The position numbers were made by a program, and so were the translations under genes. The notes beneath the pieces are model-generated. The model did no database searches, was not told the DNA's origin, and worked only from the letters and a program-made list of their open reading frames with translations. Of a stretch of 32,000 nucleotides of DNA, positions 29,034 to 30,536 are shown one piece after another (within the stretch, counting starts at the first letter, position 1; each line of letters opens with the position of its first letter). This DNA is from a virus: IMG/VR virus record IMGVR_UViG_3300032893_000001, positions 88,183 through 120,182 of that record; one strand, written 5' to 3'.

Positions 29034-29479
29034 GTCTCCTCCTTCCCCGGCAACTCATCCTCGCGCGGCGGCGGAGCAGGAGCCCAATCCGGAATCTCTG
29101 GCCTGTGTCTAGTGAAGTCACGAGGCCAAGCGTGGTACAGTTGCCACGCCCATCGGTGCATACGCTCGGCATCGGCCTTGGCGTCGTTGCGCTGGTGCAA
29201 CGCCTCGAGCACCGCGTTGCGCGCGATGGTCGGCATGAGAGGTAGCAGCTTCTCTCTCAGCTCGAGCACTCGGCGTACATCGAAATGCCATTCGCCGTCG
29301 AAGAAGTATCCGAACCTCGAATCGTCCGCCACGCAATCGAGCACGGCGCCGAAGAGGTCCTCTTGCGCGATGGCGTACCGAAGCACCCTGCGTAGTGTCT
29401 CCTTGTCCATGTAGTCCAGTAGTTCGCGAATCGACACGCTCAGCACACCATCTTTCAGAGTCAGTTTTGCGTCACTCAT
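29030..29479 (-). CDS. hypothetical protein
   Basis: Track ORF 29030..29668 trimmed to the ATG at 29479 (MSDAKLTLKDG...). It is preceded by motif copy B, with an ATGAGTGA overlap. Confidence 0.7.
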   Translation of the reverse strand: MSDAKLTLKDGVLSVSIRELLDYMDKETLRRVLRYAIAQEDLFGAVLDCVADDSRFGYFFDGEWHFDVRRVLELREKLLPLMPTIARNAVLEALHQRNDAKADAERMHRWAWQLYHAWPRDFTRHRPEIPDWAPAPPPREDELPGKEET

Positions 29480-29516
29480 GGTCTCCATCCTCATCCTCGC
29501 GCGGGGCGAGCGCGGC
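29472..29516 (-). repeat. start-associated sequence, copy B
   Basis: Minus-strand sequence is GCCGCGCTCGCCCCGCGCGAGGATGAGGATGGAGACCATGAGTGA. Confidence 0.8.
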
Positions 29517-29888
29517 GAGGAGCGCCTTCTTGGCCTCGGCGAGGCGATATAGATTGCGCGCACGCTCGTCCGGCGAAGGCCCCGGCATCTTTGAAACGTA
29601 TGCCGCGGCCTCCCTCCACGCCAAGGCTTCCTCCTCCTTGAGTGCAGCGAGCAATTCTGCGTTTGCACCCCTCAGCCTCTCCACCTCCGCGCGGAGGGCG
29701 GCCTGTGATTCCAGGCCAACTCGGACGCCGCGCTGAAACTCATCCACGTCGCGCAGTTCGACGAGCGCGATCGCCCTGTCGATGCCCACCGTGGCCGTGA
29801 GGATGCGATTCTCTTTGTCCTGCACGCACTGCGGGAGGCCGATCAGCCCGTACACGAAGTCCTCGGCCGTCACGATCGGTGCGCTCAT
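29472..29888 (-). CDS. coiled-coil protein (AALRAEVERL paralogue)
   Basis: Track ORF of 138 aa. It ends ...ALAPREDEDGDHE, inside motif copy B. Confidence 0.7.
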   Translation of the reverse strand: MSAPIVTAEDFVYGLIGLPQCVQDKENRILTATVGIDRAIALVELRDVDEFQRGVRVGLESQAALRAEVERLRGANAELLAALKEEEALAWREAAAYVSKMPGPSPDERARNLYRLAEAKKALLAALAPREDEDGDHE

Positions 29889-30310
29889 GACTCAAAACCC
29901 TTTTCGTCCCGAAGCGTGGTTTTCGGCAGCACCTCGAACAGCAGCCCCGCTGCTTCTTCGATCGGCCCCTCCAGTTGGTAGCGCAGGAGTCCGCGCCAGA
30001 GCCGCTCGAAGGACACACGCGTCTTGTCTCTGTTGAAGACCACGCGGATCGATTCTTCGGGGCGCATATTGACCATGCGTTCCCAGATCATGGGGTGAAT
30101 CACTGGTTCACTCATGGCCCTGCCCTCCGTGGCGTGGACAACAGGCCCGAAGACAGGATCGGCGTGCCGCTCCGCGGTATCGTGCCGACACGATCGCTCC
30201 CTGCTCCAACAGCCCGCTCCGCACAGGTTGCACATTTCACCGTTGCACATTGGGCAATCCGGTCCCGGACAATTCGGATCGCGGTTGGCTGCGCTGAGCC
30301 CGTCACTCAT
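29885..30310 (-). CDS. Cys-rich (zinc-binding?) protein
   Basis: Track ORF 29885..30322; ATG at 30310 (MSDGLSAANRDPNCPGPDCPMCNGEMCNLCGAGCW...). It is preceded by motif copy C. Confidence 0.7.
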   Translation of the reverse strand: MSDGLSAANRDPNCPGPDCPMCNGEMCNLCGAGCWSRERSCRHDTAERHADPVFGPVVHATEGRAMSEPVIHPMIWERMVNMRPEESIRVVFNRDKTRVSFERLWRGLLRYQLEGPIEEAAGLLFEVLPKTTLRDEKGFES

Positions 30311-30341
30311 GGCTACCTCCATCCTCGCGCGGGGCGAGCGC
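30303..30341 (-). repeat. start-associated sequence, copy C
   Basis: Minus-strand sequence is GCGCTCGCCCCGCGCGAGGATGGAGGTAGCCATGAGTGA. Confidence 0.8.
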
Positions 30342-30515
30342 CAGAAACGGACACCATTCTGGTGTGCGCCAACCCAGTCCGATGTGCCTGTTGAGGAGTG
30401 AGCAGCTAACGTCGTATCCGCTGTCCCCCTGCACCTGATATCTCTCCGAGTGGCAATGGCGGCAATTGAAGCACGATGCGGTTACCGTGAAGGTCGGTCC
30501 GTTCATCTCACTCAT
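30303..30515 (-). CDS. small Cys-rich protein
   Basis: Track ORF 30303..30548 trimmed to the ATG at 30515 (MSEMNGPTFTVTASCFNCRHCH...). It ends ...LAPREDGGSHE. Confidence 0.65.
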   Translation of the reverse strand: MSEMNGPTFTVTASCFNCRHCHSERYQVQGDSGYDVSCSLLNRHIGLGWRTPEWCPFLALAPREDGGSHE

Positions 30516-30536
30516 GGTCTCCCCCATCCTCGCGCG
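30508..30536 (-). repeat. start-associated sequence, copy D (shorter)
   Basis: Minus-strand sequence is CGCGCGAGGATGGGGGAGACCATGAGTGA. Confidence 0.75.

Follow-up and report, generated by a model that had tools for sequence, protein, structure and literature searches.

A phase-preserving repeat at junctions between small ORFan genes of a large uncultured phage: most likely a footprint of block assembly

Translationally coupled genes that overlap are joined by ATGA, TGATG or longer stop/start overlaps, with the SD lying inside the upstream ORF. In the modular theory of lambdoid phages, short homologies at gene boundaries have been proposed as crossover points which keep the genes intact.

In T4-type phages, the promoter-early stem-loop (PeSL) cassettes are bounded by short direct repeats around small ORFans in hyperplastic regions, with approximately 50 copies per genome (Arbiol et al. 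2010, PMC2839356; Comeau et al. 2014, PMC4122927). In Cluster K mycobacteriophages, the SAS and ESAS repeats are associated with gene starts, and their function is still unknown (Pope et al. 2011, PMC3203893; PMC12699233). The SAS has a 13-bp consensus, GGGATAGGAGCCC, located 3-7 bp before the start; its 11-19 copies are spread over half of the genome, mostly outside ORFs, and orthologous genes in different subclusters retain it (PMC3203893).

Here we describe an element, J, found in a 32,000-nucleotide stretch of viral DNA (the window; IMG/VR record IMGVR_UViG_3300032893_000001, positions 88,183 to 120,182). J is a repeat of 27-40 bases, present where unrelated small genes adjoin, at four to six junctions within one accessory block, with all copies on the minus strand. 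Its consensus is CGCGAGGATGG(A/G)GG(A/T)(G/A)(A/G)CCATGAGTG(A/G), at minus-strand junctions with an ATG at 25706 (copy A), 29479 (B), 30310 (C) and 30515 (D). A repeat at these four starts had been proposed in the original prediction, and it is indeed present there, far above chance. The 27-mer CGCGAGGATGGAGGAGACCATGAGTGA, searched with up to three mismatches, had three matches, at 25699-25725 (A), 30303-30329 (C) and 30508-30534 (D), and none in shuffled sequence at the same threshold, while CCATGAGTGA occurred four times against 0.09 expected and CGCGAGGATG five times against 0.24 expected. The claim of one consensus for all copies holds for the core of A-D but not throughout, as D shares only the 3' 27 nt, without GCGCTCGCCCCG, and A lacks the TGA. 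Every copy lies at an ORF start codon, always in the same phase, in line with the expected confinement to gene starts, and in copies A-D all four starts are ATG.

Identity between copies of J is 85-100%, while the gene bodies have no residual DNA or protein similarity. When the proteins flanking J were compared with one another no similarity was found beyond the motif, which agrees with the earlier view that the downstream genes are not paralogues outside it. Copies A, B, C, D and F all carry the 10-nt CGCGAGGATG without even a synonymous change, and CCATGAGTG does not vary across A-E. Pairwise similarity is mosaic, with a 5' half common to B and C, a 3' half common to A and D, and a 5' part common to A and C.

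Each J is made up of the last 8-12 codons of the upstream ORF and its TGA, an SD, and the ATG-AGT-GA(N) that opens the downstream ORF; CGCGAGGAT is an example of J positions outside the SD and ATG. The core containing the SD ends 5 nt before the ATG in A and C, and 3-4 nt before it in B and D. These parts are held in fixed phase, so that in B, C and D the stop shares an 8-nt overlap (ATGAGTGA) with the start, and the SD (GGAGG or GGAG) lies inside the upstream ORF. Such an overlap is a classical layout for translational coupling. It was also correctly predicted that the unrelated upstream proteins at B, C and D share a tail, with their TGA embedded in the start of the next gene: they end ...REDGGDHE, ...PREDGGSHE or ...PREDEDGDHE on the TGA of ATGAGTGA. 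The tail-coding sequences show six nucleotide differences, three of which are third-position changes that leave the amino acid unaltered. The tail WTREDGGDHE is missing from 14 homologues of g5, the closest of which (72% identity) ends ...RRAGAT before its stop, and four homologues of g9, found in unrelated phage contexts without J, begin MKAEIK and have no MSD head. As these homologues lack the tail and the head, the comparison indicates that the common peptide ends derive from the junction and are not intrinsic to the proteins.

Copy D (30508..30541; ATG 30515; ATGGACGCGCGAGGATGGGGGAGACCATGAGTGA) is the g5/g6 junction, at the left edge of the accessory block, with its conserved part at 30508-30534 and a g5 tail of ...WTREDGGDHE. 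Copy C (30303..30341; ATG 30310; GCGCTCGCCCCGCGCGAGGATGGAGGTAGCCATGAGTGA) is the g6/g7 junction with the g6 tail ...LAPREDGGSHE, and copy B (29472..29513; ATG 29479; GCGCTCGCCCCGCGCGAGGATGAGGATGGAGACCATGAGTGA) is the g8/g9 junction with the g8 tail ...LAPREDEDGDHE. Copy B carries a 3-nt insertion and has 22 of 22 nt in common with C upstream (GCGCTCGCCCCGCGCGAGGATG), plus CCATGAGTGACG. Copy A (25699..25737; ATG 25706; GCGCTCACCCCACGCGAGGATGGAGGAGACCATGAGTGG) lies at the junction from g21 and its following gap to g22, and ends ATGAGTGG where the other copies have TGA. The 73-nt gap before copy A had been described as non-coding and taken to imply selection at the nucleotide level. This argument fails, as the gap continues the g21 frame past its TGA (...KERP, stop, PPGARLEGARARGAALTPREDGGDHEWRW, stop) and would encode the same tail; it may therefore equally be a recently truncated tail. 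For this gap GC3 frame analysis was uninformative, as GC3 in the tail frame is low in J itself.

Two further copies, also on the minus strand, are degenerate. Copy E (30108..30134; ATG 30115; CACGGAGGGCAGGGCCATGAGTGAA) lies inside ORF g7 (29885-30310) and scores 10-11 against a null 99th percentile of 9. Two cassettes appear to be fused here, because the upstream part of g7 reads in frame into the ATG; the alternative frame reads ...RHGGQGHE up to a stop. Copy F (29028..29071), at the g9/g10 junction with a GTG at 29033, comprises CCGCCGCGCGAGGATGAG, a 13-nt insert and GGAGGAGACGTGA. The g9 tail at this copy is ...PPPREDELPGKEET, and g9 homologues have a similar P[RSK][ED][DA]E at this position.

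All J copies lie inside the accessory block, a 5.5 kb region on the minus strand (about 25069..30533) that spans g6 to g22, all of which are ORFans or near-ORFans. No homologue of g8 was found among 1.84 billion representative proteins and no match to g9 in the viral-contig search, and searches of the block proteins against PHROGs and Pfam gave only weak coiled-coil noise for g22; beyond the block, g23 matches a PHROG of unknown function. The whole block is absent from a relative (L125) that is 84-86% identical in g3-g5 and g23, and which joins g5 to g23 directly by a GTGA overlap of the g5 stop with the g23 start. Homology to this relative ends exactly where the conserved part of copy D begins. 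The right edge of the block (25062..25068, minus strand) is the GTGACGC at the g23 start, an imperfect repeat of which, ATGGACGC (30534-30541), lies at the left edge, and the relative has a single GTGACGC. In this only known indel the left edge is thus J copy D and the right edge is a plain GTGA junction, not J; no indel bounded by two J copies was found among polymorphic relatives. Other contigs with the block (ENA, Logan) are 100% identical with no polymorphism, and therefore provide no population evidence for J x J exchange.

J is not the only repeat of this kind. Inside the block, approximately 14 of the 18 junctions belong to four different repeat families, in runs of neighbours, and outside it none of 34 junctions (5 in the window and 29 in the next 10 kb) belongs to a repeat family. 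On the same strand, the second family (26070..26325) is GGCCGGCACTTGATTGGAGGGATGAGA, with 27 of 27 nt identical at 26299-26325 and 26070-26096, flanking g20. The third (28119..28760), AAGG(AG)GCCAC(A/C)CCAT(G/C)ACC, occupies three consecutive junctions, g10/g11 (28738-28760), g11/g12 (28457-28479) and g12/g13 (28119-28141), with tails K(E)ATP; its middle copy lacks both the ATG and the TGA. The fourth (27347..27770), A(A/G)(G/C)(T/C)GGATAGGAGG(A)TTGG..ATGA, is found at 27745-27770 (g14/g15) and 27347-27372 (g15/g16). Analogous junction repeats, different in sequence from J, occur in two distant relatives, one with ...GKE tails at four consecutive junctions (L041) and the other with EESEAS tails (L126). 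Junction-like repeats made up 5 of 186 repeat pairs, against a background rate of 1.6e-4.

J was not found in the remaining ~45 kb examined of the same contig (~51 kb inspected, of a genome of at least 184 kb). A near-identity search with 24000-32000 gave no nucleotide match in the 50,697 phage records of INPHARED, and exact and IUPAC scans of IMG/VR for the motif gave no matches. The motif scan of JGI metagenomes, a collection which does not include the source contig, returned 64 single-copy matches, approximately the chance number and none J-like, and that of GTDB genomes returned five scattered single matches, at chance level. The scan of related phages suggested earlier showed no conservation, with J absent from all 42 IMG/VR loci related through g23 (27-68% amino-acid identity), in which no homologues of block genes except g15 were detected.

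Compared with the PeSLs, J is likewise a short direct repeat bounding small ORFans in a hyperplastic region, and it reaches from the stop of one gene across the SD to the start of the next. At the PeSL repeats closely related genomes differ by indels, and the left edge of one indel coincides with copy D of J. However, J has no sigma-70 promoter, terminator stem-loop or intergenic spacer. The region 25000-32000 contains no sigma-70 promoter-like sites (1.8 expected), and no terminator signal was found at the J copies, where the scan stayed at shuffle level and the hairpin has no T-run. Unlike PeSLs, J lies within coding sequence, on which it imposes the C-terminal tail, the N-terminal MS(D/E) and the 8-nt stop/start overlap, and it forms one of several small lineage-specific families rather than one of approximately 50 copies per genome. 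Cassette shuffling by recombination between repeats has been shown for PeSLs, whereas at J it is proposed. The best reading is that J works like the T4 PeSLs but is not a PeSL.

Like the SAS, J is an asymmetric repeat in one orientation upstream of mostly ATG starts, at the same 3-7 bp distance, in non-structural genes of different families, and it includes the SD. Unlike the SAS, it extends over the start and the two codons that follow, is embedded in the upstream ORF, and is restricted to one indel block absent from relatives. The SAS consensus had no match in the window at up to two mismatches; at three it had 13 against 7.8 expected, none of them at J. Membership of the Cluster K SAS, with which J had been compared, was therefore rejected for a 27-40 nt element in 4-6 copies and one block, in a phage with no nucleotide match in INPHARED, and whose best helicase matches (32-37% identical) are in phages of Proteobacteria. 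In B, C and D the layout is that of a coupled gene pair, but ordinary coupled junctions evolve individually, whereas with J unrelated gene pairs are joined by one and the same ~30-nt junction. Likewise, lambdoid linkers are common to different phages at equivalent positions, while the copies of J are all in a single genome, and the collections searched gave no other phage with it.

Taken together, J is most likely a footprint of the assembly of the block, and not a dedicated regulatory site. With moderate confidence, we read it as a portable, phase-preserving junction module for translational coupling that would have spread by local duplication and recombination; of the functions listed in the original prediction, translation coupling and a recombination linker that shuffles early-gene modules fit best. 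J would sit inside a hyperplastic array of small early ORFan genes, with each copy delivering stop, SD and start together in a single fixed phase, and, judging from this layout, coupling probably operates at these junctions. The copies would have derived from one another during growth and reshuffling of the array, through local duplications as well as homologous recombination of junctions in direct repeat. Whether a cassette is inserted, deleted or swapped, a J x J exchange would leave two intact, coupled genes, and would be tolerated because stop, SD and start are held in a fixed register. The common tail and the MS(D/E) head would be by-products of the module, and where not maintained it would decay, as E (fusion), F (insert) and A (TGA changed to TGG) may illustrate. 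A segment with 29 of 31 nt shared by g8 and g22 shows that duplication or exchange within the block occurs. This model accounts for the spread of J and not for how unrelated gene bodies first came to have identical flanks. Set against it are the single J edge of the known indel, the lack of J-bounded indels in relatives, and the invariance of CGCGAGGATG in five copies, including a less-favoured GAT codon, which could reflect sequence-specific recognition rather than youth.

That invariance, together with that of CCATGAGTG, would suit a cis-regulatory operator, similar to the SAS or to the sites of T4 RegA, at which a phage or host protein or RNA co-regulates early-gene translation. Recognition could take place in mRNA or DNA at the positions surrounding the SD and ATG, and the single orientation and single position relative to the start in all copies would be expected of it, as would conservation in excess of the needs of 16S pairing, as argued for the SAS (PMC3203893). 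We nevertheless consider an operator unlikely. Its 4-6 copies are few and all lie within one indel block, their conserved extent differs pair by pair, decayed copies are tolerated, and the motif is missing from the 42 related loci, IMG/VR, JGI metagenomes and GTDB genomes. The neighbouring junctions carry three families of unrelated sequence, so several regulators would be required, which also makes the single trans-acting binding factor proposed earlier less likely. Nor do the copies have a common RNA structure. Of the four copies, only B and C have an intact CTCGC/GCGAG hairpin, which had previously been counted into the element; in A it contains a mismatch, and D lacks it. The folding check that had been recommended found no conserved fold among the six copies and none stabler than shuffles (z -1.6 to +0.6). 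J also matched no structured cis-regulatory RNA in Rfam above threshold, the only hit being sX6 at 17.5 bits against a gathering score of 40.

A more active form of assembly, which we regard as doubtful, would be dedicated, integron-like cassette capture marked by the junction families, with J-ORF circles excised by J x J recombination and re-integrating at any J. Each capture would then duplicate the junction and supply the neighbour's stop, SD and start to the newcomer, and runs of same-family junctions would record successive captures.

Equally doubtful is the view that J is a neutral relic of the tandem duplication of one ancestral gene, with no role in recombination, in which the bodies diverged while the gene ends were retained through dual-frame and SD constraint. 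Same-family junctions do adjoin and the cassettes are alike in size (205 nt from D to C, 195 nt from C to E); furthermore, g6 resembles the N-terminal part of g7 in being small and Cys-rich, and g8 and g22 show partial paralogy. However, homologues of g5 and g9 occur in unrelated phages that lack J, so that these two are acquired genes and not paralogues, the bodies have no similarity although J is 85-100% identical, and copy D was created when the block was joined to g5.

It is highly improbable that selection acts on the peptide, with the acidic tail (A)PREDGG(D/S)HE as a shared tag of early proteins, e.g., a degron or partner-binding tail. The same acidic tail ends three or four unrelated proteins, with half of its nucleotide differences synonymous and the gap before A in frame with g21, but it is missing in g5 homologues, stands behind a stop codon at A and is lost by fusion at E, while conservation runs on into the first codons of the downstream gene. 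The tails of the other junction families are quite different (KATP, EESEAS, GKE), therefore tails are suggested to be by-products.

Also highly improbable is a DNA-level signal, e.g., a promoter before each early cassette that is recognised by an RNA polymerase or sigma factor specific to the phage. T4 hyperplastic regions have a promoter before nearly every ORFan (PMC2839356) and a genome of this size could encode its own transcription factors, but 25000-32000 holds no sigma-70-like site, intergenic space in the block is almost nil, several junction families are present, and the conserved block abuts the ATG, so that a transcript starting within it would have no SD leader.

Least credible of all is a programmed +1 recoding site, at which GAGU in CAU-GAGU-GA is read by a phage tRNA and cassette proteins are fused: ARAGORN reports a 4-base anticodon 'actc' (9178-9263), 5'-ACUC-3' being complementary to 5'-GAGU-3', CAU then GAGU would shift the ribosome exactly to the downstream frame, and copy E is an in-frame fusion, but the 8-nt-loop fold is 15 kcal/mol worse than the cloverleaf (-24.4 against -39.6 kcal/mol) and has pyrimidines at positions 37 and 38, Infernal aligns the tRNA with a 16-nt insert in the loop, and comparative support is nil. 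In the favoured cloverleaf the anticodon arm is an 11-bp hairpin with a UCGU tetraloop, and a quadruplet-decoding tRNA is unlikely on folding energy.

Small ORFans with fast turnover abound in phage genomes, and many are likely to be host-takeover or anti-defence genes. How they are gained and lost in arrays without breaking their neighbours is poorly understood outside the T4-type PeSLs. J and its three sibling families tile a block for which a close relative shows the empty site, and this suggests a phase-preserving rule for cassette exchange. There is also a lesson for annotation, as shared C-terminal tails and MS(D/E) heads on unrelated small phage proteins can be junction by-products, and gene callers stumble at J-type sites: the JGI/ENA gene call of this contig misses g6 and the N-terminal half of g7, with the public call beginning at the ATG of copy E (30115). 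If the regulatory reading were true, J would be a second SAS-like system, outside the mycobacteriophages, and if cassette capture were true, the growth of phage ORFan arrays would be directly observable.

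The repeat that the original prediction placed at four gene starts is real, and we refer to it here as J, a gene-junction module comprising a stop, an SD sequence and a start. With genes numbered g2 to g23 along the minus strand from 31606 down to 23827, the 27-mer CGCGAGGATGGAGGAGACCATGAGTGA was found with at most three mismatches at copies A (25699–25725, ATG 25706, before g22), C (30303–30329, ATG 30310, g6/g7 junction) and D (30508–30534, ATG 30515, g5/g6 junction), all on the minus strand, versus 0 expected. Copy B (29472–29513, minus strand, ATG 29479, g8/g9 junction) carries a 3-nt insertion and agrees with C at every base of GCGCTCGCCCCGCGCGAGGATG (22/22) and CCATGAGTGACG. 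The shorter motifs CCATGAGTGA and CGCGAGGATG occurred four and five times against 0.09 and 0.24 expected, respectively, and their extra matches revealed two degenerate minus-strand copies, E at ATG 30115 and F at GTG 29033, the latter consisting of CGCGAGGATGAG, 13 nt and GGAGGAGACGTGA, with the tail PPPREDELPGKEET before its stop.

As proposed, the upstream ORF in B, C and D crosses the repeat and stops on the TGA of ATGAGTGA, and the proteins flanking the copies share no similarity outside the motif. Other expectations fared less well: only B and C keep the CTCGC/GCGAG hairpin intact, the 5'-most 12 nt of the supposed ~40-nt element are missing from D, and none of six junctions folded better as RNA than its own shuffles, nor was any structure common to them. 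The 73 nt before A had been read as a non-coding gap, but the g21 frame runs on through them without a stop and would code ...AALTPREDGGDHEWRW up to its stop codon; since they may be a truncated tail, they offer no evidence for nucleotide-level selection. Within this spacer (25738–25779, minus strand), GGCGCTCGGCTCGAGGG and CGTGCGAGAGG resemble degenerate partial repeats of the J 5' half, GCGCTCGCCCCGCGCGAGG, perhaps left behind where junctions collapsed. ORF g7 (29885–30310, minus strand) resembles two cassettes fused at copy E, which has decayed. The JGI/ENA annotation begins this gene at the internal ATG 30115 and has no call over 30116–30507, missing g6 and the g7 N-terminal part, each of them Cys-rich; the Logan gene call includes g6.

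The window, from an uncultured tailed phage, has 61% GC and essentially all genes on the minus strand, and codes for a baseplate-J protein, a Dda/RecD-like helicase, ThyX, an exonuclease and three tRNA genes. JGI contig Ga0335070_10000223 (64.7 kb) is identical to the window, as are ENA and Logan contigs, the longest of which reaches 184 kb. The genome is thus no shorter than 184 kb, and ~51 kb of it was inspected. Megablast gave no match to a close sequenced phage, and the best helicase matches are only 32–37% identical. Between tRNA-Tyr and tRNA-Arg lies a tRNA-like gene (9178–9263, minus strand) to which ARAGORN assigns a 4-base anticodon, 'actc'. Infernal aligns it as a tRNA at 51 bits, the anticodon loop being enlarged by a 16-nt insert, and in its minimum-energy fold, a cloverleaf, an 11-bp hairpin capped by a UCGU tetraloop forms the anticodon arm. 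The gene encodes either a tRNA carrying a short insert or intron or a tRNA-like RNA that does not decode.

The one comparator providing empty-site evidence, a 961-nt ENA contig from a close relative (L125; 84% identity to g3–g5, 86% to the g23 start), joins the g5 and g23 homologues directly, the g5 stop being the TGA of GTGACGC, whose GTG starts g23. An indel therefore spans 25069–30533 (g6 to g22). This block holds every J copy, with none in the other ~45 kb of contig examined, and all available genomes carrying it are identical. Homology between g5 and L125 stops at ...GCGAC(A/G)TG(G)ACGC, the exact point where the conserved part of D begins, and (A/G)TG(G)ACGC occurs at each edge of the block. 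The ancestral stop of g5 is now TGG, so that g5 reads into the junction. The block adjoins g23 (23827–25068, minus strand, 413 aa), a conserved anchor gene with an N-terminal transmembrane segment, a conserved domain and a Pro-rich linker; the domain is conserved in 42 IMG/VR phages and corresponds to PHROG 19005, of unknown function.

Homologues from elsewhere indicate that the tails and heads at J are by-products. The 14 g5 homologues (46–72% identity) stop shortly after a conserved ...AW motif, without WTREDGGDHE, and the four g9 homologues (46–51%), which lie in unrelated phage contexts with ordinary junctions, one adjoining an integrase, start MKAEIK, aligning from residue 5 of the window's g9, MSDAKLTLK. 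The g9 homologues do have P[RSK][ED][DA]E near their C-termini, so block 1 of F may be native to g9 and, more speculatively, the source of the J 5' half. No g8 homologue was found in 1.84 billion representatives, and PHROG/Pfam gave no assignment of note for block genes. A segment matching at 29/31 nt between g8 (29672–29702) and g22 (25220–25250), coding AALRAEVERL, shows exchange within the block. In g22 this coiled-coil unit has three internal copies (25220–25250, 25289–25325, 25445–25481), and the end of the 184-kb ENA contig falls exactly at the g8/g22 repeat (29706).

All 23 junctions from 31606 to 25068 were compared over positions −40 to +15 relative to the start, and a family required scores exceeding 13.6, the 99.9th percentile of a positional null. 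J (A, B, C, D and F, with E weaker) was joined by three further families: g20 and g21 (27/27 identical), with g19 weakly; g11, g12 and g13; and g15 and g16. Around 14/18 in-block junctions belong to a family, members of one family being neighbours, versus 0/5 outside the block in the compared region and 0/29 in the next 10 kb. The second family's repeat, GGCCGGCACTTGATTGGAGGGATGAGA (26070–26096 and 26299–26325, minus strand), flanks the 58-aa Cys-rich ORF g20, its second copy lying in the ~50-nt non-coding spacer after the g20 stop. The third (28119–28760, minus strand) has AAGG(AG)GCCAC(A/C)CCAT(G/C)ACC at three consecutive junctions, with K(E)ATP tails and ATGACC; ATG to ATC and TGA to TCA changes in the middle copy make g11 10 codons longer and deprive g12, a pentapeptide-repeat gene that public gene calls start at GTG 28354, of a junction start. 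The fourth pair (27347–27372 and 27745–27770, minus strand) reads ..GGATAGGAGG(A)TTGG..ATGA.

In distant relatives, junctions likewise carry repeats, of other sequence: four in a row have GGGAAAGGAGTAGAGCGAATGGCTGAAC and ...GKE tails (L041:700–1530), and two or three have GGAAGAAAGCGAGGCrTCGTGAAAAT and EESEAS tails (L126:3130–3450). Among 186 short repeat pairs from ~40 loci, five were junction-like (background probability 1.6e-4). In another phage locus (L130), CGAATAACC..CCGTCTATC..ATGACCACGA is found three times between genes, and in a related IMG/VR phage (L011) the perfect 20-bp palindrome TTGAGTAAYGCATTACTCAA, with at least five copies (4599, 7876, 9957, 11940, 18857), looks like an operator or terminator.

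An operator akin to the Start-Associated Sequences (SAS) of Cluster K mycobacteriophages would fit the invariance of CGCGAGGATG, and we regard this reading as less probable than the one below but still a serious alternative. J resembles SAS in position and orientation and departs from them in sequence, size, copy number, distribution and conservation. The fourth family includes GGATAGGAG, nine contiguous bases of the SAS consensus GGGATAGGAGCCC (four mismatches overall), probably a coincidence around the SD. With GGAGG placed 5 nt ahead of the ATG and still within the upstream ORF, and with stop and start overlapping by 8 nt, J has the anatomy of a textbook coupling junction; its unusual feature is the reuse of one module. 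The copies are confined to the indel block, resemble one another in a mosaic fashion and have in part decayed; their tails and heads are grafted, several unrelated families occupy runs of neighbouring junctions, and g8 and g22 have exchanged sequence. These observations argue that J is more probably a record of how the array grew, through local duplication or junction recombination, than the site of one regulator.

We infer that recombination occurs at J. As the module keeps its stop, SD and start in a single fixed phase, any exchange between two copies would regenerate intact genes; such exchanges would be tolerated and J would be self-perpetuating. The functionally closest system is the promoter-early stem-loop (PeSL) cassettes of T4-type phages, and J, having no promoter and no terminator, falls outside the PeSL definition. 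It fits best among the repeat-bounded cassettes of phage hyperplastic regions, of which it would be a new variant.
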